IMG/VR virus record: IMGVR_UViG_3300012983_000033
Span: 64,001 to 128,000 of that record
Length of the DNA: 64,000 nucleotides
Reading direction: 5' to 3' (one strand)
Origin: a virus
Lineage: Duplodnaviria > Caudoviricetes
Positions within the stretch are counted from its first letter, which is position 1, and each line of letters begins with the position of its first letter. The notes beneath the pieces were generated by a model, which was given only the letters and a program-made list of their open reading frames with translations, was not told where the DNA came from and searched no databases. The translations under genes and the position numbers were made by a program. Of this stretch, positions 3,349 through 22,015 are shown one piece after another.

Positions 3349-3383
3349 ACGGCCGCACCCTTTACACAGAAGGATGCGGCCGT
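3349..3383 (-). terminator. GC-rich hairpin after nadE
   Basis: cggccgca...tgcggccg inverted repeat. Confidence 0.5.
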
Positions 3384-3386
3384 CTA

Positions 3387-4160
3387 TTATTCCCAACCAT
3401 AAATTTTTTGGAATGAATAAGGCTGCGGGAGTGTCATCTGTTTAAAGCGATTAGCCTTATGTTTTGTCTTAATAAGTTCAATTACCTTTTCACTGTCGCA
3501 CTTACCAGTCCTGATATAAGTATCTAACTGTTCATAAGTAAAACCAAATCTATCCTCATCCGTCTGACCACAGAGTCCGTCAGAAGGAGTTTTGTGTGTA
3601 AGGAAATGCGGCAATCCAAGAGCATCACCGATGGCTACAACCTCGCTCGCTGTATAATTGGCGAGAGGTGCGAAATCACCAATATTATCACCCCAACGGG
3701 TTGAATAACCGATATATGATTCAGAAAGATTATCTGTGCAGACCACTCGACCTCCAATTGACTGGGATACAAAGTAAAGAACCGTCATACGAATACGGGG
3801 AGGTAAATTGATTATTGCCTGCTCAGAAGGCTGAAAGGCTCTTCCTGCTGTGGCAGCAACTTCTAAACCAAGAGCCGACACAACGGACTCTATATTTACT
3901 ACATATCGATCAATGTCAAGATAATTACAAACATTAAAAGAATCCTTAATATCTTTTTGTTCACCATTCGGCATTAAAACTCCTACTACTCTATCTTTAC
4001 CAAGAGCTTCTACGCACAAAGCTGCGGCGACCGTGGAATCCTTACCACCGCTAATGCCAATAACAGCATTGCAATCTTTCCCGTTCTCTTCAAACCAATC
4101 TCGTATCCACTGTACGATACGGTCTTTATGTTCTACTGCATTAAAATCTTCTCTTACCAT
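3387..4160 (-). CDS. nadE: NH3-dependent NAD+ synthetase
   Basis: GISGGKDS PP-loop, RIRMT, N.SE..IGYSTRWGD, PSDGL...TDE motifs. Confidence 0.92.
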   Translation of the reverse strand: MVREDFNAVEHKDRIVQWIRDWFEENGKDCNAVIGISGGKDSTVAAALCVEALGKDRVVGVLMPNGEQKDIKDSFNVCNYLDIDRYVVNIESVVSALGLEVAATAGRAFQPSEQAIINLPPRIRMTVLYFVSQSIGGRVVCTDNLSESYIGYSTRWGDNIGDFAPLANYTASEVVAIGDALGLPHFLTHKTPSDGLCGQTDEDRFGFTYEQLDTYIRTGKCDSEKVIELIKTKHKANRFKQMTLPQPYSFQKIYGWE

Positions 4161-4345
4161 ATATATTTAGTTACCTCCCAATCTTCTAAAAAATCTTCAA
4201 GACTTGAATATGAACAGGATTTTGTTTCCCAAGTAATCTTTAATAATCCAAGTTTTATTTCTGATGTGATGGTGTAGAGTTCATCGGTATGAAGTCCCAT
4301 TGAACCATTTTCACCAATATATCTTGCTACGATTTTCTTATCCAT
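4154..4345 (-). CDS. Hypothetical protein
   Basis: ORF overlapping both neighbours. Confidence 0.55.
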   Translation of the reverse strand: MDKKIVARYIGENGSMGLHTDELYTITSEIKLGLLKITWETKSCSYSSLEDFLEDWEVTKYIW

Positions 4346-4700
4346 TTTCAGTCTTTTCCCTTATAATATAAATCTTACCGTCTTGATCAACAATCTCATA
4401 TTCTTCAAAAAATTCATTCATTTGGACTTCATCGGATATTATGACTTTATATTGGGTTTCATATGTTTTGGGAATTTCAAAAACGGCACCCATCATTGCT
4501 CCTGTCAAACCGCCCGCAACCACTACAATTACTGCAGCAAATATTGCAACAGCGTCCCAGCCTACATCATGTAAGGCTATGATAGAAATAATAATTCCTA
4601 TCACCCCTACTACTGCAAATGCGATCCAAAACGCCTTCCAGTTAAATATAGCTTCAGCTACTACTTCTGCCTGTGATAAAACTTCAATTCCTTTAAGCAT
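4338..4700 (-). CDS. Two-TM membrane protein (similar to 15135..15470)
   Basis: Two hydrophobic helices plus C-terminal Y.V.I.D...Y..VD..GK domain. Confidence 0.7.
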   Translation of the reverse strand: MLKGIEVLSQAEVVAEAIFNWKAFWIAFAVVGVIGIIISIIALHDVGWDAVAIFAAVIVVVAGGLTGAMMGAVFEIPKTYETQYKVIISDEVQMNEFFEEYEIVDQDGKIYIIREKTENG

Positions 4701-5254
4701 TAGTAAATATTCACTCCTTTACTTACCAACTTTTTATATGCTTCACTTAAAATATGGTCATACCCATCTTTATCGCCTCTAACAACACCACAATCAATAC
4801 GATGATAATCAAGCATATGAAGAATTTCCTCTGCAAGAGCATCACTCTCTGCTTCGGTCTGACTGCGGCCCTTCGGATTATATACTTTACCTCGTTTAAT
4901 AAAGAAGTTTATGTTGTCATATGTATTAAAAACATTTAAGATAACCTCATTAAAGGGTTGTCCAAGTGCGGGATTTGTATTGTAGATAATAGCAAGAGGA
5001 AGCGGACTATCTGTGATAATAACATCAACATCATCGCGGCATCTTGCAAGTCGATAAGACTGTTTACCAAACACATATTCCTGACAACTTAAGGCAAGTG
5101 TATTACCTTCCCAAGTTTTATCCTTCGCAAACTCTGTAACGAGCTCGGCGTTTATGCCACACTGTTTGAGTTCTGAAAAGATGTATGCGGCACCTGTGCT
5201 TTTACCAGCACCCGGCGCTCCAAATAGATTTATTACAAGCGGTACTTTATTCAT
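4700..5254 (-). CDS. P-loop kinase, NadR/AAA_28-like
   Basis: INLFGAPGAGKST, VTEFAK, IITDSPL motifs. Confidence 0.75.
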   Translation of the reverse strand: MNKVPLVINLFGAPGAGKSTGAAYIFSELKQCGINAELVTEFAKDKTWEGNTLALSCQEYVFGKQSYRLARCRDDVDVIITDSPLPLAIIYNTNPALGQPFNEVILNVFNTYDNINFFIKRGKVYNPKGRSQTEAESDALAEEILHMLDYHRIDCGVVRGDKDGYDHILSEAYKKLVSKGVNIY

Positions 5255-5426
5255 ATTATCCTCCTTACTTTAAAGCTCCAATTACGACTGCGATTATATC
5301 TAATATTGTAGTTGCACCATAAAAGGCTGCCCAACCCCATTTCTTTTCAGCAAGACAGTGAATGGTTTCATTTAAGAAAAAGCCTATAAAAACCAGATAA
5401 AACATTTCTAACATATGTTGTTCTCC

Positions 5427-5669
5427 TTATCCTATCGATATACTTACTGTTGCAATTTCATCAGTTCTTACAAAAATATTTTTTGTGTGCATTCTATCGC
5501 CAAGGCTTATGAACTGATTATCGCCACTTTTTAAATAATCTTTTGCAAGATCATATGAATTATCATAATCATTTTTATCATAACCCTCAATCTTTTCTCC
5601 CGATTTAAGGATTATTTCAAATTTCCACCAATATTTTCTTTCGTGTTCATCTTTACTCGTCAATAACAT
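5427..5669 (-). CDS. Hypothetical protein
   Basis: ORF with RBS. Confidence 0.55.
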   Translation of the reverse strand: MLLTSKDEHERKYWWKFEIILKSGEKIEGYDKNDYDNSYDLAKDYLKSGDNQFISLGDRMHTKNIFVRTDEIATVSISIG

Positions 5670-5860
5670 ATTTATTCACATACTCCTTATAATCTTCATT
5701 CTCAAGTTGCCATTGTCCTTCAAAAACAATTTTAATCGGCTTTGGTGCTGGAATTAGTATTGGTATTAAAGGCTTATTACCAGCCACATATATCGAATCC
5801 TCACCTTCAAATGGTTTTATCTATGCAGAATCAACACTAAAAAGTTTTTCACACATATTT

Positions 5861-6121
5861 TTATTCCTCCCTCGATGGCATCTCAAGATAGTTATATAGT
5901 TTTTCAATACCGTCTGGTGTATCAACTCTAATAACTTTTCCTTCATCCGAACTACTTCTTCGAAGTTTAATAGCAAACACAGTATTATCGCGGGAGTCCC
6001 AAGTCGCCTCAATATACTTATAAGGGATACGATTTCTTTTACAAGTATTATACATATTTGGACCCCAAGCATTATTTTCACTTACAAAATTGAGAAACTC
6101 TGCAAACTGTTCTGGTGTCAT
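5861..6121 (-). CDS. Hypothetical protein
   Basis: TAATG coupling to upstream ORF. Confidence 0.6.
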   Translation of the reverse strand: MTPEQFAEFLNFVSENNAWGPNMYNTCKRNRIPYKYIEATWDSRDNTVFAIKLRRSSSDEGKVIRVDTPDGIEKLYNYLEMPSREE

Positions 6122-6390
6122 TATTCTTCCTCCAATGCCTTTCTTAATAATCTTCTAAGATCAAGCGAATATCCATTCTCAAGCCAAGCATCTTTTAATA
6201 GATTCCAATTATCTGGTTGTTCAAAGAATGAGGCAATCTGGTCGATTATTTCTTCTTCTGCATCAGGGATTTCAGAAATATGTTTATAAGGTAACAGCAC
6301 AAACTTTACTGTATCAGTTACTGAACCAACCTTTGCCTCTGCTTCAGCTACATAGTTTGGAAGTTTATCAACATTTATATATCGACCCAT
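6121..6390 (-). CDS. Hypothetical protein
   Basis: ORF from MGRYIN with RBS. Confidence 0.55.
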   Translation of the reverse strand: MGRYINVDKLPNYVAEAEAKVGSVTDTVKFVLLPYKHISEIPDAEEEIIDQIASFFEQPDNWNLLKDAWLENGYSLDLRRLLRKALEEE

Positions 6391-6391
6391 A

Positions 6392-6619
6392 TCAAAACTC
6401 CTTCCACTCATTGAGCTTTTTCTGTATCTGTTCATACTGCATAAAAGCGATATCAACTCTATCATAATAATTCTCTTCGCCGCCGATATTAAGCGACTCA
6501 ACAAGTCTTATAACAACTTCTTCCTTATTCGGTGCGGGCGGTGATGATTTCTGAACACCCGTGCCGCGATTTGGAGGGGCAGTTTTACTTTCTTCAGTTG
6601 GTTGCCAAGTATTCATCAT
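6392..6619 (-). CDS. Hypothetical protein
   Basis: ORF downstream of sigmaA-like promoter. Confidence 0.55.
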   Translation of the reverse strand: MMNTWQPTEESKTAPPNRGTGVQKSSPPAPNKEEVVIRLVESLNIGGEENYYDRVDIAFMQYEQIQKKLNEWKEF

Positions 6620-6721
6620 ATATATAATTCTCTCCTTTATCTATCTTATATAAATATTATATCAAAAATTTAATAATTTTGCAAATAATTTAAGCCATAG
6701 TATTATTACTATGGCGTCTTA

Positions 6722-6964
6722 TTATTCAATGTTTACAATATTATTTGTATAATAGGTTGTAGATGCAACAGGAGTTCTACAATGTGTTCCTTCCATAGAA
6801 GTGCCAGTCACAAACATTGGCTGGGTTGCTGTGCCAATTGAGGCTAAAGCCTTTTCCATTCGTTGGATTGCTTTCTCACAATCTCTCTCCTGACCAGAAG
6901 AATGGCTATCCCAATAACACTTTTCAACTGGATCGTAACTTGTACAAAAATCACATTTTGTCAT
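6722..6964 (-). CDS. Hypothetical protein
   Basis: ORF with RBS. Confidence 0.5.
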   Translation of the reverse strand: MTKCDFCTSYDPVEKCYWDSHSSGQERDCEKAIQRMEKALASIGTATQPMFVTGTSMEGTHCRTPVASTTYYTNNIVNIE

Positions 6965-7122
6965 ATTATCACCTTCTTTTTAGTGAGTATAATTCCATAA
7001 TATTGTTGCAAAAAATACAGCAATTATCCAGAATGTGCTACCAATAAAATAATGGTTTTTATCAAAAGCACAAACTGTGATAATACCGAATATTACAGTC
7101 ATCAATAAGAGAATAAAAACCA

Positions 7123-7431
7123 TCAATTTTCTATTCCCTCTCTTGACTTCATCTGTTCATATGAAATTGCTTTATTCCTAACAAGTTTAGGAATAGAACA
7201 CTCAGGAATCTGAATAAATGAACCACAACAAGGACATATTACACCATAATCGGTTTGTAATTCAGAAGAAAAAATAAGTTCTTTCCACATACGATAGCAA
7301 ATATCACTTTCATCAATACTAAGCACTGCACCACAATAATCAGATTCTTCTCCCCAATAACCGGTTTTATTTTTATATTGTTTACAAATTATTTCTGCTT
7401 CATATGTATCAGGCTTTTTTATAATTTTCAT
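7123..7431 (-). CDS. Zn-ribbon hypothetical protein
   Basis: C...CG and CPCC motifs. Confidence 0.6.
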   Translation of the reverse strand: MKIIKKPDTYEAEIICKQYKNKTGYWGEESDYCGAVLSIDESDICYRMWKELIFSSELQTDYGVICPCCGSFIQIPECSIPKLVRNKAISYEQMKSREGIEN

Positions 7432-7778
7432 TATACATCACTTCCCCACAATTTATCTTCAAATTCTCCTGCGAACCAAAGGCGATAAATATTATGACCC
7501 TGCCGCAGTTCACGATTCGTTAAATCTTTGAGTAACTTCCATTCCCCTCTTTTATTGCGAAGATATATTTCAAATGTGTCTCCATTCCACGCAAATTTAT
7601 CAGCATTTAAGAGAATAATTAAATCGTTTGTATATATTGATACATTCCCAACAAAGGACTGTTGAAGATATTGTGCTTGATTAAAGCAATAACTTGCCCC
7701 TTTCGTGGCATCTACCCAAAACGCCCTACTCGGTGCAGTATCGTGAGTGAGTATACCATCTTCAAAATAAACTTTCAT
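7431..7778 (-). CDS. Hypothetical protein
   Basis: ORF, translationally coupled. Confidence 0.65.
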   Translation of the reverse strand: MKVYFEDGILTHDTAPSRAFWVDATKGASYCFNQAQYLQQSFVGNVSIYTNDLIILLNADKFAWNGDTFEIYLRNKRGEWKLLKDLTNRELRQGHNIYRLWFAGEFEDKLWGSDV

Positions 7779-7946
7779 TTAATTCCTCCTGTTTCATTCT
7801 CTCATAAAGTATCTTCATACTAATTCCACGACATCTTACTTGATTTGGGCAAATTATACAAACAGAGGTAATGGTAGTAAGTTTATTTGTTTCTAACAGA
7901 CACGCTCGCAGCTCTTCATCTGTGGCGTCTATATTCGTTGTAAACA

Positions 7947-8255
7947 TTAAACTTCCCTCCAACCATTTTTCTGTATAATTGCTCTCATATTCGCCACACC
8001 GACAGAATTCATACTATGAATTCTGATTGGATAGTTGCGGCCGGTCTCTTCGAGCCAGTCAAGAAGTTTTATATAGTCGCCGCCATACTGAGCATATTCA
8101 CCAGCATCGTGGTCTATGTCAATGAGTTCAATTGTATAACAATATTGAATGTGTGGATCTATTAAAAAACGCTTAGCCTCATTAACACTTTTACACCAAA
8201 TATATCCCTCAGGTGCGGGTCTTACATCGTCAATCCAAAGCTTCAATTTCTTCAC
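7947..8255 (-). CDS. Cyclic-phosphate-processing receiver-domain protein
   Basis: KLWIDDVRPAP, DIDHDAG and IHSMNSVG motifs. Confidence 0.75.
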   Translation of the reverse strand: MKKLKLWIDDVRPAPEGYIWCKSVNEAKRFLIDPHIQYCYTIELIDIDHDAGEYAQYGGDYIKLLDWLEETGRNYPIRIHSMNSVGVANMRAIIQKNGWREV

Positions 8256-8403
8256 TTCCTATCATAACTAATTCACCAGATATATGGAGGTAATAATAGC
8301 TATATCCCTCATCTGCATAAGCAAAACTTGCTCCATTCTCATAAAGTTCTTCTATCGTTACTTCTCGAGCATACATTTTTTAACTCCTTTTCTACTTTAT
8401 ATA

Positions 8404-8838
8404 TTACCAAGTCATATCAAATGCTTCGATTTCTGAAGTGTCGAAAACAAAATCTTCTTCGTCTTCGCCTCCACAAAAAATAATATCATCAAAATTAAGA
8501 CGGAAGCCTATCGATTCAGAAGTAAGTTCCGCATTAATAAGTTTCATATTTCGTCTTTCAAGAAACTCTTTTAAAAACTGAGGAGAAGGATTATCAACCT
8601 TATTAAGACGACCGTTTTCACCATAAAACATATAAATTGTTTTCCAACGCATTGAATAGCAATTCTTACCTATATCATTGGTATAGCAATAACCTTCAGC
8701 ATCAACGCCGCAAAGGCACATATTATTTTCTTCTACTGATAATTCACTTGCATCCGCAGTTTCATCACCAAACCAAAGGGCATCAATAAGAAGAGTTTCT
8801 ACATTGTCTGAAGTTGAACCGTTAATATATGCTTTCAT
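8404..8838 (-). CDS. Hypothetical protein
   Basis: ORF after sigmaA-like promoter. Confidence 0.6.
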   Translation of the reverse strand: MKAYINGSTSDNVETLLIDALWFGDETADASELSVEENNMCLCGVDAEGYCYTNDIGKNCYSMRWKTIYMFYGENGRLNKVDNPSPQFLKEFLERRNMKLINAELTSESIGFRLNFDDIIFCGGEDEEDFVFDTSEIEAFDMTW

Positions 8839-8957
8839 ATAATCATTCCCTTTCTAAATTTATATACTTTTCTTACTTTCTATAATAATTATAACATTAT
8901 TTTATAAAAAAGTCAAAAAGAGACTTATTGCTAAGTCTCTTCATCAAGTGGACATAA

Positions 8958-9140
8958 TCAATTTATTTTCTTGAAAACTACGGTAAGATAATGTCTATCT
9001 GTAGAGTAACTGAAAGCTCGAACCTCATGGGTGGCAGAAATGATTTCTTCGTTGTACTTTTCTGCCCACTCATTAGCTTCATAAACTACTTCACTGCTAC
9101 TATCACCCGAAAATATTTTAATATAAGTATTCATACTCAC
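8958..9140 (-). CDS. Hypothetical protein
   Basis: ORF with GAGGTG RBS. Confidence 0.5.
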   Translation of the reverse strand: MSMNTYIKIFSGDSSSEVVYEANEWAEKYNEEIISATHEVRAFSYSTDRHYLTVVFKKIN

Positions 9141-9196
9141 ACCTCAATTGTATTGATACGACCGCCAAATGATTTTGCCATAATAATCTTCCTTTC

Positions 9197-9694
9197 TTAT
9201 CCTTTATCGCACTCACAAACAAGCACAACAGTATCTGTAAAATGTTTTTCCATTAAACCGAGAACCTTTTCCCAGTCACCACCGCCACGAGCACATCCAA
9301 ACTTATATGGAAATGCGAGAACGGGAGAGGAAATTGGGAAAAATTCCTTACAAAAGAAATTAATTGTAGCGAAGCATTTTTCCAAAGCATCATAGTCAGT
9401 ATAACACTTTCCGTCATATCCATAGTCTAACTGTCCATAGATATTCAAAACACCCAAAAAGTCGTTTTCATTTCGTGCTTCCCACGGAGATTTAAGTTTT
9501 ATAAATTGTGTACATCCAAGCAAGTCTTCTGGTGAGCGACTTTCGCACCAATTCATATATTCACTATATACAATAGGAAATCGTTTCTTAACTTGCTTTG
9601 CAACGCCGCTGCCCATTACTCCCTGACAATTTACTTGATGACAGAGAATATCAGCACCACTTTCAAATATATCACACTTTTTGTGTACTATCAT
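9197..9694 (-). CDS. Macrodomain (ADP-ribose processing) protein
   Basis: DIF...HQVNCQGVMGSGVAKQ and P..FGCARGGG.W motifs. Confidence 0.9.
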   Translation of the reverse strand: MIVHKKCDIFESGADILCHQVNCQGVMGSGVAKQVKKRFPIVYSEYMNWCESRSPEDLLGCTQFIKLKSPWEARNENDFLGVLNIYGQLDYGYDGKCYTDYDALEKCFATINFFCKEFFPISSPVLAFPYKFGCARGGGDWEKVLGLMEKHFTDTVVLVCECDKG

Positions 9695-10151
9695 CTGCTT
9701 TAGCCTCCTTTTGCAATCTCGCCCTTATTGATGTTAAACGAGAGCAGAATTCAGAACGAGTTAAAACCGTCTCGGTAATTTTAGTTTTTCCAATTGAGTG
9801 AGTGAGAACTGCCGTTCCAGTAGCAAGTAACGCTTTCTGGAACGAAGTGTTCTGCGCGAGGGCATCAAATGCTCTGTCAAGCAATAACTGATATTCAACA
9901 CTATCTCTCTTAAAGGACTGACCCTGCCAGTGTAAGGTCTGTGTCCTCCACCATTTCTTTTTCTTTCCCTTAAACTTCGCCGCCTTGCCCACTAAAAGAC
10001 AAACTGTCTTCTGCATCTCGGGGTCTTGGAATTTTAAACTCTGCAAGAACCCTTCCATTGAATTGCATTGGACTCCGTCAATAATGAAGGGATGCGGCGA
10101 GAAGTTAGATAATGCTGCGGCAGGGAAACCGCATCCTGAACCTATATCCAT
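9672..10151 (-). CDS. NADAR/YbiA-like protein
   Basis: LSNF..HPF..DG....SMEGFLQ..KF and ALLATG motifs. Confidence 0.75.
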   Translation of the reverse strand: MDIGSGCGFPAAALSNFSPHPFIIDGVQCNSMEGFLQSLKFQDPEMQKTVCLLVGKAAKFKGKKKKWWRTQTLHWQGQSFKRDSVEYQLLLDRAFDALAQNTSFQKALLATGTAVLTHSIGKTKITETVLTRSEFCSRLTSIRARLQKEAKADDSTQKV

Positions 10152-11641
10152 TAAAATTCTCCTTTGTGTAATCTATTACGAATTGTCTGTAAGTTTTCTT
10201 CTATAAGCATTTCGCTATCCTTAAAGATAGGGCGAAGAAGATTGTTTTTATTATTACAAGCTTCTTCCCAAGTATATTCATCAGCATAACCAAGTTCAAA
10301 ATGACAGCCATTCCAGTCCATAACCGCACAATGTGCTACAACACAACAGCCTTTCTGTGATTTCTTGAAGCCGCCGTCTTTGGGGTCTTTAAAGATAAGA
10401 TAAGGCTTACCATTAATCTCACAGTAAGTAGCCTTAATACAAGAGCTGAATGTATCACGAGTGAAGGGTTTGAGGATACCGTCCTCTTCGACACACTGGA
10501 ATGAGAATGAACCAACACCAAGTGCTACATTTGAACAAGCAAAGCCGTTTCTTTCAAGAATACTATAAATTTCACGACAACGCTGAATTGTGATACTGTC
10601 ACCGTAGATAGCCTTTACGTGAGGGTCAAGAACTCTATAGCCCTTTGAGTTGATTGTACCGCCAAAGATATCCCAAAGCTTGAAGACTGTCTGAGTAACA
10701 ACCTCAACACAATCTCCTGAGTCGCCGCGAACGAGGAAGCAACCTTCGTGTTCAAGAATTTCTTTCTTGAGTTTGGGGAGAATATTGTCTACAACATTCC
10801 AATAATCATAACTATCACAAACACAAGAGAAAGATCTTGTGGGATAAATTTCAGTAAGAAGGCGTCTGATAAGAGTTTCTTCATCACCATCAACCGCATA
10901 ATTTGAACACATTACTGCGTGCTCTGTTGAGGGTGAACCAAAAGCAACTGGTTCTCTTGTACAGTCGCAATTATAATACTGTTCAAGATAGGGAATTGTA
11001 GGAACAGTTGCTGTATTAAGGAATGAAAGACACCAACCGGCACCAGCTTTTACAGCAGACTGAAGACACTCTTCACCGCGGAAGTCGAAGGCACCAAGTG
11101 CTCTTGCTCTTGAAACACTATCATCACAAGTCTTATCGTAAAACTCATTAACAATCTGACGGTAAGTATGTCCTACTGTTGCGGCGAGCATCGGATGCCA
11201 CATCTCTGCAGAAATAAGGCTTTCAAGTGCCTGCGGCAGCCACGCAAAATCGGGATGTGTATTTGTGATTGCGAACATCGGCACGTGCATTGGAACAAGA
11301 GTGCCTTCGGGAAGAGCACGAATTTCAATAGGAAGATAACCGACTCTCCAAAGCTGTTTGATTTTTTCAATGCCATAAGCACCCTTACCGAGTGCCGCAT
11401 CCATAATGCGTTCATACTGTGTAATCACTTCAAGAAAATCTCTCTTAAAGAAGTTGTCATTAAAGTAATCAATAAGATATTCTTTACAAAAACTCTGAAT
11501 ACCAAACATAACAACTTCATCCCACATCTTAACACGACTCATACGAGGTGTAAAATAGGAAACTGATTTTGTAATGCCCTTCGGGAGCATCTCTGCGTGA
11601 ACTGCTTTATAAAAGTCAATAAGTAACATAGGATTTGTCAT
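10151..11641 (-). CDS. Nicotinamide/nicotinate phosphoribosyltransferase family protein (NAMPT-like)
   Basis: DFYK..H, DFRG, STEHAVM, DSYD, VRGDSGD, YGDSI, K.SQKG motifs; start at MTNPM. Confidence 0.9.
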   Translation of the reverse strand: MTNPMLLIDFYKAVHAEMLPKGITKSVSYFTPRMSRVKMWDEVVMFGIQSFCKEYLIDYFNDNFFKRDFLEVITQYERIMDAALGKGAYGIEKIKQLWRVGYLPIEIRALPEGTLVPMHVPMFAITNTHPDFAWLPQALESLISAEMWHPMLAATVGHTYRQIVNEFYDKTCDDSVSRARALGAFDFRGEECLQSAVKAGAGWCLSFLNTATVPTIPYLEQYYNCDCTREPVAFGSPSTEHAVMCSNYAVDGDEETLIRRLLTEIYPTRSFSCVCDSYDYWNVVDNILPKLKKEILEHEGCFLVRGDSGDCVEVVTQTVFKLWDIFGGTINSKGYRVLDPHVKAIYGDSITIQRCREIYSILERNGFACSNVALGVGSFSFQCVEEDGILKPFTRDTFSSCIKATYCEINGKPYLIFKDPKDGGFKKSQKGCCVVAHCAVMDWNGCHFELGYADEYTWEEACNNKNNLLRPIFKDSEMLIEENLQTIRNRLHKGEF

Positions 11642-11642
11642 A

Positions 11643-12206
11643 TTAGTTAGCCTCCTTGAGATATTTAATAATTTCATTTCTGTGCATAAATACAAAGTTT
11701 GGAACGAGATTAAGAAGCACTCCTTCTTTAAGAGTTGGTTCAAGAAGGGCTTTTCTTACCATAGTTGCACTGATATTCTCAAATCTATCAAGAAATTTGA
11801 AACGCAGACACCAACGGTCATCTGTATCAAACCAACTGAGCATAATCTGAGGATTATCACTATAATAAATTGTCATATCTGGGTCGTGAGTATAACTGAG
11901 CATCTTCATAAAAAGATATCGACCCCACGCATATGAATTATCTGCCTCATCAGTTAAATCATTAAGCGGATGGATATGAACTCTGTGAAGTTCTTCTGAA
12001 CTTAATACTTCGTGAAGTGCGCCCTGAATAAGCATCATACGAAATTCAATCGGTAATGGATTTCGCTTTGTACCACACTTATCAGCACTACCAACAAAGA
12101 TATGCAAATCTCCGCAGTATTTACGAGCGTCATCGAGAGCTTTCTTTACCATACTTAAATGTCCATTATGAAAGGGCTGTGCCCTAAAAAGAATTACACC
12201 AGTCAT
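11643..12206 (-). CDS. NMN/NaMN adenylyltransferase (NadM-like)
   Basis: RAQPFHNGH (HxGH), GSA...RNPL, ISATMVR motifs. Confidence 0.85.
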   Translation of the reverse strand: MTGVILFRAQPFHNGHLSMVKKALDDARKYCGDLHIFVGSADKCGTKRNPLPIEFRMMLIQGALHEVLSSEELHRVHIHPLNDLTDEADNSYAWGRYLFMKMLSYTHDPDMTIYYSDNPQIMLSWFDTDDRWCLRFKFLDRFENISATMVRKALLEPTLKEGVLLNLVPNFVFMHRNEIIKYLKEAN

Positions 12207-12305
12207 ATTATTTTCCTTTCTTTTCTAACTTTCTATATATATTATAACAAAAATTTGAAAAAAAATCAAATAACCCTCTATTTAAGTAGAGGGTTATATC
12301 TTTAA

Positions 12306-12560
12306 TTATTCATTAACTAAGTGACAGTTAAAAGAACTTACGAGCCAAACTTTTCCTTCGGTATCTGTGATCTGAAGCTGTTCTCCGTCATAATCACGCC
12401 ACTTAGCAATTTTAATGGTCTTTGAAGTGCCGTCAAACATATCAATAATAGCTGTATCATATTCATAGTTGAGGTCTACAATTTGTTTATTAAATCCACA
12501 TCCTGTGAAAAGACAAGCAATAATCAATACACCGAGTATGATAGCAATAATTTTCTTCAT
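12306..12560 (-). CDS. Lipoprotein
   Basis: Signal peptide with lipobox LFTGC. Confidence 0.75.
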   Translation of the reverse strand: MKKIIAIILGVLIIACLFTGCGFNKQIVDLNYEYDTAIIDMFDGTSKTIKIAKWRDYDGEQLQITDTEGKVWLVSSFNCHLVNE

Positions 12561-12572
12561 TTTTATTTCTCC

Positions 12573-13043
12573 TTATTTCATCAATTCATTGAGGACTTTC
12601 TGTGCAATTTTCATATCGCAATTGTAAGTTTTAAGAATTGGCATTACGGTCTTCATAATCTTACCCTTATTTTGCATAGTAACAGGTATTTCATTTTTAA
12701 ATAAAATTTTATCAATGAGATTAGTAATTTTCGTTTCGTCAGTAATCAACTGGGGAGCATACTCATTTACAACTGTCATATTATACTGATATTCTGCCTT
12801 ACGTGTTGCATACTGTTCCGTATCAGGGCAGGTATCAATCATTTCCTGAACTGTTTTCTTGTACTTTGTCAAGACTTCATTTACAAGTGCGTCAGTAATT
12901 TCAACTCGTGTCTTACCTGAGGTTGAAGCCTTATCAATTGCCGCTACAATGTCTGCCAACACAGAGCGGCGGGCTTTATTACCACTTTTAAGTGATTCAT
13001 TCATATCATTTTTTATTTTTTCATATATCGTCATTATAATCAT
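12573..13043 (-). CDS. GatB/YqeY-domain protein
   Basis: EKIKNDM...LKSG.K.R..VL, Y.P.L, KGKIMK.VM pattern. Confidence 0.75.
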   Translation of the reverse strand: MIIMTIYEKIKNDMNESLKSGNKARRSVLADIVAAIDKASTSGKTRVEITDALVNEVLTKYKKTVQEMIDTCPDTEQYATRKAEYQYNMTVVNEYAPQLITDETKITNLIDKILFKNEIPVTMQNKGKIMKTVMPILKTYNCDMKIAQKVLNELMK

Positions 13044-13051
13044 ATCCTTTC

Positions 13052-13867
13052 TTATATATTTTCAACAAAAGAAACAAACTCTGTTTCTATATCACGTGGA
13101 AAGATTGATTTTGTAGTGAAGACGTGTTCAACAAGACCGCTATTGGGAAGGTCTCCTTTAAGCATAGTAGCTTCACAATGTGTTACATAAAGATATACAT
13201 TCTTCGCGCCCGCTTCCTTGAGAGCCTTGGCTGTATAATAAAATGTGCCGCCGCGTGAACAAATATCGTCAACAATAAGTACGTGTTTTCCAGCTACGAG
13301 TTCTTTATTCATAAGCTCGAGACCTTTAATTTTACCTGTTTCCCAATCTCTTTTCTTAATGCCAAAAGCATAGGGAACACCAAGTGATTCAGAATAGCGT
13401 TTCATCGCACCCTCATCGGGGAAACAAACAATAACACTCTCATCTGAAAGGTCTGTAAGAAATTCATAAATAGTTTTTGCATTGTTGTGTGCGGGGTCGA
13501 TAGGATGATAATTGTGAATAAGAGCCGCCGCAACATTACTATGCACATCATCACAGAATACAAGTTTAAAATTAAGTGAATTTAAAACTTCTGTAAAGTA
13601 TTTAAGAGTAAATACATCTTCGGAATTTTTTACTCTATCCATTCTTGCGTGAGGACAATAAGGCATATAAAGAACCATATCCATATTTTCAAAATGTTTG
13701 CGAAGACAAATCAGAGTAAAAAGTTCAGCATCGTTTTCATAAAACCATTCGATAAGCGTAATCTGGTTATCATCAAGGCTATCATAAACTCCCTGTTCAA
13801 TTTTCATCATAAGAGTATTATCAGGAAAATGTCCCTGTTCAATTTCAATACCGTTAAACTTAATCAT
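13052..13867 (-). CDS. Ribose-phosphate pyrophosphokinase-like protein (Prs/Adps-like)
   Basis: FPD, MPYCPHARMDR, DVHS, FPDEGA, VDDICSRGGTF, YVTH motifs. Confidence 0.88.
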   Translation of the reverse strand: MIKFNGIEIEQGHFPDNTLMMKIEQGVYDSLDDNQITLIEWFYENDAELFTLICLRKHFENMDMVLYMPYCPHARMDRVKNSEDVFTLKYFTEVLNSLNFKLVFCDDVHSNVAAALIHNYHPIDPAHNNAKTIYEFLTDLSDESVIVCFPDEGAMKRYSESLGVPYAFGIKKRDWETGKIKGLELMNKELVAGKHVLIVDDICSRGGTFYYTAKALKEAGAKNVYLYVTHCEATMLKGDLPNSGLVEHVFTTKSIFPRDIETEFVSFVENI

Positions 13868-13878
13868 AAAATCTCTCC

Positions 13879-14463
13879 TTAATCTTCGTTAATCACATTT
13901 ATCTGGCACATCTTCATTGCGGCGAGTGCATTTTTGTGAGATTCAGGTGTTACACCGGCACAGCAACTTGCATCAACTGTAATAAGAAGCTCTGGGCAAT
14001 ATGCCTTGAGAAGCATTGCATTTGAGATAACGCAAATATCTGTACATACACCCATAAGAATTACTTCGTCAATATCAATATGGGGGTTATCATTAACCAA
14101 ACCGCGAATTGTATTTGCAAGTTCGAGTGAACCAAAAGTGGGTTTAAGAACTCTACCCTTGCGAATATCGCGAGTTGAATAACTAAGGAAATTGCTACCA
14201 TAATCAGTATAGCTTGAAATTTGCTTATTAATACTCCAACCCGCAGTTCCTTCGATACAGTGCATAACGGGAAGATTTTTTCCTTCCTGAGTTTCAAGAT
14301 AATTAGACTGATGAGTGTCTTTGGTGAAGAAAAGAACTGTTTTTCCGTCATCAAGTTCGTGAAGTCTATCAACCATTACAGGAACAATCGCCTGAGCTTC
14401 TGGTGAACCAAGAGGACCGTCAATAAAGTCATTCTGCATATCAACTACTACAACAATTTTCAT
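13879..14463 (-). CDS. pncA: Nicotinamidase/isochorismatase-family cysteine hydrolase
   Basis: VVDMQNDF, DTH, HC..GT.GW, K.TFG, GVCTDICV motifs. Confidence 0.85.
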   Translation of the reverse strand: MKIVVVVDMQNDFIDGPLGSPEAQAIVPVMVDRLHELDDGKTVLFFTKDTHQSNYLETQEGKNLPVMHCIEGTAGWSINKQISSYTDYGSNFLSYSTRDIRKGRVLKPTFGSLELANTIRGLVNDNPHIDIDEVILMGVCTDICVISNAMLLKAYCPELLITVDASCCAGVTPESHKNALAAMKMCQINVINED

Positions 14464-14551
14464 ATATAAAATCTCCTTTATTTATTTTCTATAATAATTA
14501 TATAAAAAATTTGAGGAAAAAGCAAATTAACTTTTGCCTTTTCCTCTTTAC

Positions 14552-19745: not shown

Positions 19746-20132
19746 TTATTCAAGTTCAGTTGTCTTTATATAAGATGTTGCAATATTACCACTTTTTATT
19801 TCAACATATCTTTCAGTAGCAATTTCAACTTTTACCTGCCTCATATCACTCTCAAATCGTACTTCTGCGGCGTACCAATAATTATTCTCTTGACATTCTG
19901 TCAAACCTTCCTCCCAATAGATCGCAAATAATCTTTCGCCGCCGTCCGTAGGAATTGATATAATACTTGTCGCGGATCTTGTCCAACGATGATTTTCATC
20001 AAATTCTTCTACGATAATTCTATTATTGCATAAAACTTCCCTCAACATAAATTCAGGAATATACTCATTATTATCATAAAGTCCAAGAAATTCGGTATTA
20101 TAATCTCTCATATTAACCTCTACATCCAACAA
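19746..20132 (-). CDS. Hypothetical protein
   Basis: HRW and W..GLTECQEN motifs. Confidence 0.65.
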   Translation of the reverse strand: MLDVEVNMRDYNTEFLGLYDNNEYIPEFMLREVLCNNRIIVEEFDENHRWTRSATSIISIPTDGGERLFAIYWEEGLTECQENNYWYAAEVRFESDMRQVKVEIATERYVEIKSGNIATSYIKTTELE

Positions 20133-20856
20133 ATTTTATTTCAGTACAGTCGTCATAAATTTCAATAATATCATCATATATAAACCGCACATTTTCATTA
20201 TATAAAGTTAAATTTAAATCGTGATGATAGTGACCAGTAATCCACATTTTAAAGTCTATATTATAAAATAAATCTTCAAGAAGTTCACCTGAAGGAGTGG
20301 CTTCAAAAGTATGGAATACCTGTTTTACTACGGTATTTGGAAGGGAATGAGAGATGATATAGTCGATACTATTGCCGACAGTAGCAAGATTGCGATTTGC
20401 ATTTTCAATATCAGAAGGAAGAATTGTTTCCTGCGGCCACCAGCTCACATTCTCTGTACGCCATTCTTTGTCGTGGCTATCTGCTCCGCCCATACAAAGG
20501 ATTTTTAAGTCATCAAATTTCAAAATTTCACCACGAAGAATATGGTATACAGAATCAGAAATTTGATGTGCTTTTGCACCACAAAATTCTGTGATAGGAT
20601 ATGCATTAAGGCGAAGATGATTTTCGTGATTCCCGTCAATAAAAACTGTTGTCCACGGCGCAACTTCATCAAGCCATTTTAAATACCATTTTTCTTCACC
20701 GTCAGGCTCATTTGACCAAATAAAGCCAAAGTCACCTGCAATAATCAGTATATCGGACTTGTTAAACGCATTTTTAAACTTTCTGCGAAAGTCTACGAGT
20801 TTATCAAAGTCAATAGTACCGTGAGTATCGCCAGTAACTAATATCTTACTCATCAT
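20113..20856 (-). CDS. Calcineurin-like metallophosphoesterase
   Basis: GDTHG, AGDFG, DGNHEN, SHS, GHYH motifs. Confidence 0.9.
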   Translation of the reverse strand: MMSKILVTGDTHGTIDFDKLVDFRRKFKNAFNKSDILIIAGDFGFIWSNEPDGEEKWYLKWLDEVAPWTTVFIDGNHENHLRLNAYPITEFCGAKAHQISDSVYHILRGEILKFDDLKILCMGGADSHDKEWRTENVSWWPQETILPSDIENANRNLATVGNSIDYIISHSLPNTVVKQVFHTFEATPSGELLEDLFYNIDFKMWITGHYHHDLNLTLYNENVRFIYDDIIEIYDDCTEIKFVGCRG

Positions 20857-22015
20857 CTTCCACCTCCATTTCTTTTTTTATTCGTTCTTTTATTCTTAAC
20901 ATAATAGTTTTTTCTGTTAAATTATTCATATAATCATTTATATTATTTTCTCTATGGTCATAAGCCCATATTGAAAAATTAAAACCGTCTTTTGTTAAGC
21001 CTGCTGAATTAAGAGCATATACATAATTTTTTCTTGGCATCCAGCAAAGATGACGTACTTCACAGAATTGCTCCCAAAAGTGGTCTTTGATATCTTCGTA
21101 TGCCGCGATGATAAGTTCCATTTTTGCTCTATGCATTGGTGCATAAGCAAGGAAGTCATCGACTTTATCCTCACGAATAAGACGGACAGCTGTTCTCAAA
21201 CCAAGTTTACCATTATTTGTAGCGTGCGCGGCGATGAGATATTCTGGTGATTTGATTTTAATGCGGTTATGATTCGCATCGACAACAACCATACCCTCTT
21301 CGTCTTTTGTCATTTGTTCTGCGACATCAATACAATCTTCAAGAGAAGATAAATAAAATCTCTTTGGTTGCTCAACTCCAAATTCCCTCCATACAGGATC
21401 GAACTCATAATACTCTCCATAGAGAATATTATCTCTTTGACCAAGATAATAGAGAGTTGTGTGGTCATAATGGATTGTTACTTGGCTTTCTGGTGAAACC
21501 AATTCAAACATATAGGTGTAATGTTCGTCAAGTTCACGACAGAAAGAAAGCCAATTACAACCAAGAGCACGCTCAACTAAATTACCAAAAGTCAATCCTT
21601 CTATTGAGTTTGACACAGGCGCCTCGAAAGCGTCAATAGAGTTATTAGTTGATAAATGCCAACCTTCGTAGTTGTGCCAGAACTTGATAAGCGAACCGTC
21701 AATTTTTTCATTAACAAATGCACTACACCAATCAATTTCTGCGGCGTTTGGATCTCCATAGTTAAAGAACTTATCGAAAGGATAACAAACAATACTCCAC
21801 TGACCGCTTAATCCTTTTTGCACAATTATGCCACGACACGCCTGACATAAAGGTAAAGACATATCAGATTCAAGCTGATTATACTTGAAAAGGTAATAGT
21901 TACCTTTCTGACGAACTTCAATATTATAAGGCGGTTCCTGTATTAACTTAACCCATTCGTCATTAGGATGCTCATTGGCAAAGTCAATAAAAGCATCAAT
22001 TATTCTTTTCTTCAT
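20846..22015 (-). CDS. RNA ligase (T4 Rnl1-like)
   Basis: CRG, PFDKFFN, EKIDGSL, FELVSP, EGMVV, RIKIKS..Y motifs. Confidence 0.88.
   Translation of the reverse strand: MKKRIIDAFIDFANEHPNDEWVKLIQEPPYNIEVRQKGNYYLFKYNQLESDMSLPLCQACRGIIVQKGLSGQWSIVCYPFDKFFNYGDPNAAEIDWCSAFVNEKIDGSLIKFWHNYEGWHLSTNNSIDAFEAPVSNSIEGLTFGNLVERALGCNWLSFCRELDEHYTYMFELVSPESQVTIHYDHTTLYYLGQRDNILYGEYYEFDPVWREFGVEQPKRFYLSSLEDCIDVAEQMTKDEEGMVVVDANHNRIKIKSPEYLIAAHATNNGKLGLRTAVRLIREDKVDDFLAYAPMHRAKMELIIAAYEDIKDHFWEQFCEVRHLCWMPRKNYVYALNSAGLTKDGFNFSIWAYDHRENNINDYMNNLTEKTIMLRIKERIKKEMEVEDDE

Follow-up and report, generated by a model that had tools for sequence, protein, structure and literature searches.

Depletion of NAD+ is among the commonest anti-phage strategies of bacteria, and the main phage answer known is the NAD+ reconstitution pathway 1 (NARP1), a nicotinamide-using pair of enzymes, Adps and Namat. 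We analysed a 64,000-nucleotide stretch of DNA (the window), which comprises bases 64001-128000 of IMG/VR record IMGVR_UViG_3300012983_000033, a complete phage genome of 139,671 bp whose ends are direct repeats. Its minus strand carries, between 3387 and 14463, a cluster of NAD genes that includes a relative of each of the two NARP1 enzymes together with a PncA-type nicotinamidase and the NAD synthetase NadE. What route to NAD+ could such a set of genes serve, when the nicotinamidase would remove the nicotinamide that an ordinary NARP1 uses?

We propose that the core of this cluster is probably a nicotinate-type NARP1. PncA would deamidate nicotinamide to nicotinate, the Adps-like enzyme would pyrophosphorylate ADP-ribose (ADPR) to ADP-ribose pyrophosphate (ADPR-PP), a variant Namat-like transferase would join nicotinate and ADPR-PP to deamido-NAD (NaAD), and NadE would amidate NaAD to NAD+, for which it could re-use the ammonia freed by PncA. 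The proposal is based on sequence, namely on four enzyme family identities, on the loss of an Asp from the transferase pocket together with a covarying Ser, and on genomic linkage, from which we infer what the transferase and the Adps-like enzyme act on. A sequence-only reading of the window had listed these and several neighbouring NAD genes between 3387 and 14463, and family searches bore this out, all of the genes being on the minus strand. The features of the core are given below.

3387-4160, minus strand: NadE, an NH3-dependent NAD synthetase of 257 residues (Pfam NAD_synthase, 5.8e-49)
10151-11641, minus strand: variant Namat-like transferase ('Namat*'), 496 residues; predicted to convert nicotinate and ADPR-PP to NaAD and pyrophosphate (PPi)
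10454-10513, minus strand: remodelled selectivity-clamp helix of the transferase, residues 377-396, consisting of GSFSFQC, the 9-residue insert VEEDGILKP and then F-TRD
10928-10930, minus strand: codon of Ser238, which replaces the pocket residue Ala242 of Namat
11009-11011, minus strand: codon of Ala211, which replaces the amide-binding Asp (D215 in Namat, D219 in human NAMPT)
13052-13867, minus strand: Adps-like paralogue of Prs, 271 residues; predicted to convert ADPR and ATP to ADPR-PP
13879-14463, minus strand: PncA-type nicotinamidase, 194 residues (Pfam Isochorismatase, 1.2e-19)

The longest open reading frame (ORF) of the transferase, 10151-11743, begins at an upstream TTG; the start that we assigned is the ATG at 11641, which has GGAGG upstream. 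The protein is 42% identical to Namat of SPbetaL1 (E 1e-134) and scores 391 bits against PDB entries 9w5w and 9w5x, as compared with 148-166 bits against bacterial and human NAMPT (148 for the human enzyme). Both entries are deposited as nicotinamide phosphoribosyltransferase, and 9w5x has the length of SPbetaL1 Namat, 491 residues. We observed that the catalytic core is intact (D9, Y11, F185, R188, H241, R305 and D307), and that F189, R192, H245, R306 and D308 of Namat are all matched. The pocket, however, differs from that of NARP1: the module has Ala (Ser in a sister group) at the position of Asp215 and Ser at that of Ala242. Both positions line the nicotinamide pocket of Namat, where Asp215 hydrogen-bonds the amide of nicotinamide (PMC12774641). 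Mutation of this residue in SPbetaL1 Namat (D215A) reduced the activity with nicotinamide 8-fold, leaving about one eighth (PMC12774641), and a review table citing Khan et al. 2006 gives human NAMPT D219S as switching substrate and D219A as inactive (PMC4919578).

The transferase was scored against a library of 1.84 billion cluster representatives, of which the 150 best were aligned. The two pocket positions covary among these representatives, with Asp and Ala in 92, Ala and Ser in 33 and Ser and Ser in 18; the combinations Asp and Ser or Ala and Ala were not seen. The substrate switch of human D219S is reportedly towards nicotinic acid. When the tree was built without the pocket columns and the clamp helix, the variants occupied one side of a single branch, so that the pocket change arose once and has been kept down to ~40% identity.

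Next, we looked at the genes that accompany the two kinds of pocket. We scanned IMG/VR, and GTDB at one genome per species, and obtained 214 loci, in which ORFs were called and searched with hidden Markov models made from the window proteins and their matches. Linkage was counted over 150 unique transferases, and also in a flank-filtered set having at least 3 kb on both sides, with the following outcome.

Variant transferases (n = 129): PncA beside 117, Adps beside 121, NadE beside 107, all three beside 102, a macrodomain gene beside 20
Canonical transferases (n = 19): PncA beside 0, Adps beside 18, NadE beside 0, all three beside 0, a macrodomain gene beside 1
Variant transferases with at least 3 kb of flank on both sides (n = 103): PncA beside 100, Adps beside 102, NadE beside 94
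Canonical transferases with at least 3 kb of flank on both sides (n = 15): PncA beside 0, Adps beside 14, NadE beside 0

Position 215 is Ala or Ser in all of the 129 variant and Asp in all of the 19 canonical sequences. Fisher p in the flank-filtered set was 2e-16 for PncA and 4e-13 for NadE, both values being uncorrected for shared ancestry. PncA and NadE are obligatory partners of the variant and never of canonical NARP1, whereas an adjacent Adps is a feature that the variant (121 of 129 loci) has in common with NARP1. The clustering is not due to chance, for more than 100 other loci, in phages and in bacteria, hold this set of genes. Its commonest order, PncA-Adps-transferase-NadE, was found in 79 unique loci, and in 14 more a homologue of the window macrodomain stands between the transferase and NadE; NadE follows directly 3' of the variant transferase in most relatives. 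Shuffled orders also occur, such as PncA-transferase-NadE-Adps in two loci of the Ser type (L132, L183) and transferase-macrodomain-NadE-PncA in MT835544, and phage phAss-1 has PncA-Adps-transferase-orf-NadE. Among GenBank phages, a NAMPT-family gene is present in 2,021 of 50,697 records but a PncA homologue in only 15, the best matches being gut phages with the PncA-Adps-transferase-NadE operon. The IMG/VR scan with one further representative, P0022, returned one locus only.

These data bear on one alternative, that the locus is an ordinary nicotinamide-using NARP1, with PncA, NadE and the rest being auxiliary metabolic genes that happen to lie nearby and have no relation to it. The intact catalytic core is compatible with it, and so are the one eighth of activity kept by the D215A mutant and the distance of 5 kb to NadE in the window. 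However, neither PncA nor NadE stands beside any of the 15 flank-filtered canonical transferases, as against 100 and 94 of the 103 variants; residues 215 and 242 vary together; nicotinamide, the substrate, would be destroyed by a PncA expressed alongside; and the four genes stay together across several orders and in bacteria. We therefore regard this alternative as highly improbable. The suggestion of the sequence-only reading that the transferase would use nicotinate, with NadE amidating NaAD, is on the contrary supported by Ala211 and Ser238, by the covariation, and by the linkage with PncA and NadE.

The family assignments of the two flanking enzymes were as follows. Among solved structures, P. 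horikoshii PncA (1im5) is the best match to the window PncA. The window protein is divergent; at 25.6 bits it falls below the cut-off of 174 of the NCBIfam PncA equivalog NF008623, and its family in PHROG (19305) is without an assigned function. All of the 107 unique homologues that adjoin Namat-like genes retain its catalytic triad (D8/K107/C144) and metal site (D49/H51/H68). NadE scores 162.9 bits against TIGR00552, above the cut-off of 63.65, and has no glutaminase domain; the SGGxDS loop of its ATP-pyrophosphatase (S37-G38-G39-x-D41-S42) is invariant in 101 homologues.

Over its full length, the Prs-like protein shares 37% identity with SPbetaL1 Adps (E 4e-44), and it matches PHROG 619 at 233 bits. 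Against the model of phosphoribosyl pyrophosphate (PRPP) synthetase, PRPS, it scores 94 bits, which is below the cut-off of 113, whereas a true PRPS was found at 390-416 bits in all 14 control genomes and in two isolate genomes with a related operon. Residues F18, R87, H121, D161, K185, D212 and D213 of ICP1 Adps are kept in it. Phylogeny against Adps and Namat, which the sequence-only reading had proposed as a check, groups the Prs-like protein with the Adps of ICP1 and SPbetaL1, off PRPS at 100% SH-aLRT (in a tree with only two host PRPS as outgroup). The transferase is placed in the Namat group by its identity and bit scores.

We also compared the selectivity clamp. The window transferase keeps two clamp residues of NARP1, R36 (R40 in Namat) and F379 (F392 in Namat), and differs from NARP1 by the 9-residue insert and by the lack of Tyr396. 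At position 3 of the clamp motif, 126 of 126 variants have an aromatic residue. Cys replaces Tyr396 (position 7) in 115 of the 126, and 118 have an extra Phe just before TRD, which may take over the stacking role of the missing Tyr396. The full canonical clamp motif is retained by some of the variant-pocket members (P0021, L116-L120).

Departures of other kinds were noticed within the family. Three IMG/VR phage contigs (L068, L070, L073) encode a transferase that has the variant pocket, a clamp insert of 26 residues and a His at the position of the clamp-loop Arg; these transferases are solitary, with no PncA, Adps or NadE within the fetched flanks. Many Namat/Nampt-family representatives (P0040, P0068 and others) have 550-1100 residues owing to large inserts. 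In two of the long examples the insert is intein-like and comes immediately behind GS[FY] of the clamp helix, and in others the insert follows residue 242.

Many of the GTDB loci are chromosomal (Clostridia), so that the module is not phage-specific; it was probably exchanged between phages and Clostridia. On the chromosome of Pseudoruminococcus massiliensis (L095:4623-10315), the operon comprises PncA, the Adps-like gene, the variant transferase, a 648-residue NadE of the glutamine type and NrtR, and is flanked by AgrB and aspartate-semialdehyde dehydrogenase. It holds the only NadE and the only gene of the nicotinate phosphoribosyltransferase (NAPRTase) family in this genome, which has no PncB and encodes NadA, NadC, NadD and a true PRPS outside the operon. 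In Filifactor villosus, the operon is on a contig of phage size (136 kb), and the rest of the genome has a PncB-like gene, PncA, NadD and NadE, and no NadA or NadC. A homologue of NrtR is near the operon in about 25 of 40 genome loci; NrtR is a Nudix-related repressor of NAD genes, which ADP-ribose frees from its DNA sites (PMC2330246). Judged by their genes, the carrier hosts are organisms that salvage NAD via the deamidated route.

A separate PncB-like gene of the NAPRTase family was also present in 16 of 17 further operon-bearing Clostridia genomes. This coexistence rules out, for most genomes but not for P. massiliensis, that the transferase is a plain substitute of PncB. The absence of NadD was considered as proof of a direct route to NaAD and was rejected, as both isolate genomes have NadD; such a test is uninformative, since no net synthesis of NAD is possible without NadD.

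Two neighbours of the transferase in the window have to be introduced before its ribosyl donor can be discussed.

9197-9694, minus strand: macrodomain protein, 165 residues, candidate Adpp (ADPR-1''-phosphate to ADPR; PHROG 335 'phosphatase', 7.7e-41)
11643-12206, minus strand: adenylyltransferase of nicotinamide or nicotinate mononucleotide (NMN or NaMN), NMNAT, of NadM/archaeal type, 187 residues (Pfam CTP_transf_like, 3e-07)

The alternative to ADPR-PP is PRPP. According to this explanation, the locus encodes a Preiss-Handler-like route on a NAMPT fold, in which the Prs-like protein would make PRPP, the transferase NaMN, NMNAT or the host NadD NaAD, and NadE NAD+, ADP-ribose being no substrate. 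The pocket change and the linkage with PncA and NadE fit this route equally well. SPbetaL1 Namat still converts PRPP to NMN in vitro (PMC12774641), pairs of Prs and nadV have long been taken as a PRPP supply (PMC2330246), clusters of pncB-nadD-nadE are known in jumbo phages (PMC11662467), and the operon-carrying bacteria have NadD. Moreover, the NMNAT stop codon in the window lies 1 nt before the transferase ATG (junction TAAtATG), and the clamp has lost Tyr396 and has an insert in its helix. The evidence on the other side begins with the Prs-like protein, which groups with proven Adps and below the PRPS threshold in a setting where the hosts keep a true PRPS. The core operon is without an adenylyltransferase, an NMNAT or NadD gene being beside only 1 of the 129 variant transferases, and in 16 of 17 operon genomes the PncB-like gene would make the transferase redundant. 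Further, R40 and F392 of the clamp are conserved, the whole clamp motif persists in some variants, and two links to ADPR adjoin the operon, namely NrtR and macrodomains of the Poa1p type as in NARP1-AP. We consider the PRPP route unlikely on these grounds. Feeding by ADPR-PP, which the sequence-only reading had raised as a possibility, is the better-supported option, as the Prs-like gene groups with proven Adps and not with host PRPS; the transferase may nevertheless use both donors, and NMNAT may then handle the mononucleotide made with PRPP.

Several observations weigh against the proposal of a nicotinate-type NARP1. As the variant clade is a single branch, the link of the pocket with PncA and NadE rests on one long-kept transition and not on repeated events. 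The clamp change (Tyr396 to Cys, with the 9-residue insert) could weaken the binding of ADPR-PP, and the coupling of NMNAT to the transferase is a hint that a mononucleotide is produced, if only by a side route. Most of the ADPR-contact residues of Adps are kept in PRPS as well, which makes the acceptor unprovable from these residues (PMC13586617); the contact residues of the ICP1 structure were dropped as a test of the acceptor for this reason. NadE is 5 kb off in the window, in another predicted transcription unit. Lastly, removal of nicotinamide would relieve the product inhibition of Sir2-type NADases, which is odd for a counter-defence.

This last point leads to the purpose of the module. 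It lies in the TAG-free early region of the phage, and the nicotinate-type NARP1 would restore NAD+ after a host NADase defence, in hosts that use the deamidated route. Alternatively, the same chemistry could serve a general NAD+ economy, that is, recycling from host housekeeping, and not a dedicated counter-defence. The operon is chromosomal and NrtR-linked in Clostridia, and that of P. massiliensis holds the only NadE of its genome. Related phages have a Sir2-family gene inside the module, and sirtuins need the removal of nicotinamide, a role established for Pnc1 towards Sir2 in yeast. The window phage itself has neither an NAD-dependent ligase nor Sir2 in its genome, so that a specific consumer is not evident either way. 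Against a general economy, canonical NARP1 is a proven counter-defence, and the Paenibacillus foliorum NARP1 rescues from SPARSA (PMC12774641); the window module is also among early genes, with NADAR and a macrodomain that are typical of anti-DarT counter-defence. We consider the housekeeping purpose to be rather unlikely.

We compared the module with the known systems of NAD+ synthesis. It resembles NARP1 (Adps and Namat of SPbetaL1, Bas63, ICP1 and P. foliorum; bioRxiv 10.1101/2024.02.11.579819; PMC12774641; PMC13586617) in having an Adps-group Prs-like enzyme and a Namat-group transferase of the NAMPT fold with the catalytic core kept. Apart from the pocket, the clamp and the partner genes, it differs in that its predicted product is NaAD and not NAD+, and in the three genes that separate Adps and the transferase in the window. 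With NARP1-AP (Adps-Adpp-Namat of Vibrio phage Gary; bioRxiv 10.64898/2026.01.28.702374) it shares a macrodomain of the Poa1p or 'phosphatase' type at most two genes from the transferase. The window macrodomain, however, also resembles the N-terminus of DarG and rides on a nicotinate-type core; it is a candidate Adpp by family and position. The likeness to NARP2 (Nampt and Nmnat of Vibrio phage KVP40) is that NMNAT is directly upstream of a NAMPT-fold gene, but the window transferase is of the Namat group and lacks the Asp that reads nicotinamide, and the window NMNAT, which is of the NadM type, stands alone and has no Nudix domain. NARP1 and NARP2 did not occur together in any phage that Osterman et al. 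examined.

Preiss-Handler operons offer a further comparison. The nrtR-pncA-pncB-nadD-nadE operon of Clostridium acetobutylicum (PMC2330246) likewise has PncA as the first and NadE as the last enzyme, NaAD as the penultimate compound and, as in the bacterial copies of the module, a link to NrtR. The difference lies in the middle, where the block of PncB and NadD is replaced by the Adps-like and Namat-like enzymes; both blocks would turn nicotinate into NaAD, but the adenylyl part would derive here from ADP-ribose and not from ATP. The pncB-nadD-nadE clusters of jumbo phages (PMC11662467) are a different solution.

A P-loop protein of the AAA_28 family is also encoded in the window.

4700-5254, minus strand: AAA_28 P-loop kinase-like protein, 184 residues (Pfam AAA_28, 4.8e-09, 37.1 bits)

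This protein and NMNAT, which are near each other in related clusters, recall a split NadR, and thereby NARP3 (PnuC and NadR of phage Bas30; PMC13464706). The phage genome has no PnuC, however, and family searches with the AAA_28 protein gave no match to a NadR-specific model. The sequence-only reading had called it a NadR-like kinase: the P-loop AAA_28 assignment stands, but the NadR label is weak, as AAA_28 (4.8e-09) was the only Pfam match and the PHROG match was to 'thymidylate kinase' (3.5e-09). A similar correction concerns the nicotinate-based route, which was upheld while its designation as a third route was not, the name NARP3 being now given to PnuC and NadR. An AlphaFold model of the AAA_28 protein, made from three sequences, reached a confidence (pLDDT) of 47.7 and was unusable.

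A literature search by term, from which the Adps and aRES papers were left out, gave no paper that combines NARP1 with a nicotinamidase; papers in which ADPR-PP occurs along with nicotinic acid describe no route from these two. Nicotinic acid, PncA and NadE are absent from the Namat and RyDEP papers, PncA, nicotinamidase and NadE from the Osterman preprint, and the phAss-1 paper merely lists its nicotinamidase. We are inclined, by a small measure, to believe that the formation of deamido-NAD and PPi from nicotinate and ADPR-PP is an undescribed reaction, and that it would complete a self-contained, nitrogen-neutral NAD+ cycle of four enzymes starting from the products of NADases. The cycle would be widespread in large gut and rumen phages and would form an NrtR-linked recycling operon in Clostridia, and its extended form would add enzymes that free ADP-ribose and an NMNAT branch. 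If this is true, a new enzyme reaction is added to NAD biochemistry, and the presence of a nicotinamidase and an NAD synthetase in hundreds of gut and rumen phages is accounted for. The pathway would be common to phages and Clostridia and tied to a sensor of ADP-ribose, and would thus matter for the everyday recycling of NAD in bacteria. The change of substrate appears to be marked by two residues of the pocket, which would provide a simple annotation rule for thousands of genes named 'nicotinamide phosphoribosyltransferase'.

The remaining members of the extended cluster in the window are the following.

9672-10151, minus strand: NADAR / T4 gp30.3-family protein, 159 residues (Pfam Phage_30_3, 8.8e-60; NADAR, 2.4e-04)
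12306-12560, minus strand: orf84, 84 residues, with a hydrophobic, lipoprotein-signal-like N-terminus (MKKIIAIILGVLIIACLFTGC); no family match
12573-13043, minus strand: YqeY-like protein, 156 residues (Pfam YqeY, 2.2e-13)

The window departs from the four-gene core as follows: Adps and the transferase are 1.4 kb apart, with YqeY, orf84 and NMNAT in between; NADAR stands between the transferase and the macrodomain; and NadE is displaced 5 kb downstream. The NADAR gene overlaps the transferase stop by 1 nt. The macrodomain protein and NADAR may release ADP-ribose for use by Adps, the source being ADPR-1''-phosphate or ADP-ribosylated DNA, and the accessory genes probably widen the inputs of the pathway. 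The macrodomain is 33% identical to the one that follows a canonical Adps-Namat pair in another locus (L207); its phage homologues are annotated as Poa1p-like or ADPR-1''-phosphatase, and it matches yeast Poa1p (6lft) and DarG (N-terminal) in part. NMNAT is recognised by NCBIfam NMNAT models down to 1.8e-13 and by the archaeal NMNAT structures 1ej2 and 1f9a, and carries an HxGH motif (PFHNGH); an IMG/VR scan with it gave no match. A search of the ESM Atlas with the YqeY protein returned YqeY clusters only.

A scan with the YqeY protein led to six other loci (L227-L232) on phage contigs of 68-402 kb, in which YqeY comes directly after Adps. Their 8.5-kb cluster reads PncA-Adps-YqeY-Sir2-orf133-transferase-macrodomain-NadE-NADAR-AAA_28-(orf105)-NMNAT, or nearly so, the exceptions being that L227 has no NMNAT in the fetched DNA, that L228 and L229 have no AAA_28 gene, and that orf105 is confined to L230-L232. 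NADAR is present in all six clusters. Homologues of NMNAT (E 1e-79 to 1e-86) are found in L228-L232, and those of the AAA_28 protein, at 58% identity, stand between NADAR and NMNAT in L227 and L230-L232. YqeY, NADAR, the macrodomain, AAA_28 and NMNAT are thus recurrent companions of the core and not an accident of one genome. The extended cluster suggests that phages assemble a single toolkit from several enzymes that release ADP-ribose or make NAD.

The Sir2-family gene of these loci (L230:7523-8296; Pfam SIR2, 9.2e-45) lies with an ORF of 133 residues (L230:8293-8694) between YqeY and the transferase, and likewise in L227-L229, L231 and L232. That a phage sirtuin has PncA and a macrodomain as neighbours suggests that NAD use is coupled to its recycling. 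Directly upstream of the NAD module, L230 also encodes an 838-residue protein with shoulder and repeat domains of the major vault protein (L230:2745-5261).

Finally, we considered the layout of the cluster in the phage genome. All module genes are on the minus strand, and PncA, the Adps-like gene, NMNAT, the transferase, NadE and the other NAD genes are each present in one copy in the 139,671-bp genome. The phage reads TAG as Gln in its late genes; applied to the module, this reading leaves all frames unaltered. The following sites come from a consensus pattern scan for terminators and promoters and are pattern matches only.

3349-3383, minus strand: strong terminator-like hairpin of 14 pairs (9 G-C), then a T-rich tail; ends the NadE unit
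12269-12241, minus strand: promoter-like site, TTGATT-17-TATAAT with TG, abutting the next hairpin and dividing the cluster into two predicted transcription units
12297-12270, minus strand: terminator-like hairpin of 11 pairs, bidirectional, 3' of orf84
14513-14546, minus strand: terminator-like hairpin just upstream of PncA, at the upstream edge of the module

The pattern suggests a first unit of PncA-Adps-YqeY-orf84, which is followed by the hairpin and the promoter-like site, and a second unit of NMNAT-transferase-NADAR-macrodomain with overlapping or abutting frames. About 12 small ORFs stand between the macrodomain unit and the unit that ends in NadE.

Megablast against the GenBank phages gave no match, and the phage is without a close cultured relative. 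A T4-like identity, suggested by gp30.3 and an RNA ligase, was dropped, as the record of phAss-1 puts the phage with the code-15 phages of Clostridia.

Some minor observations may be added. The signal-like N-terminus of orf84 is found amid a cluster of cytoplasmic enzymes, and its single homologue, a weak one, lies near L046. One of the small ORFs between the macrodomain and NadE (7947-8255, minus strand) encodes a cREC_REC 'cyclic-phosphate processing receiver' protein of 102 residues (PF20274, 8.3e-17). Farther upstream, at 20113-22015 on the minus strand, an RNA ligase of the T4 Rnl1 type (PF09511, 7e-18) is directly followed by a calcineurin-like phosphoesterase, which together look like an RNA-repair pair, and a metallophosphoesterase is also near the NAD genes of the related phages L068 and L230.

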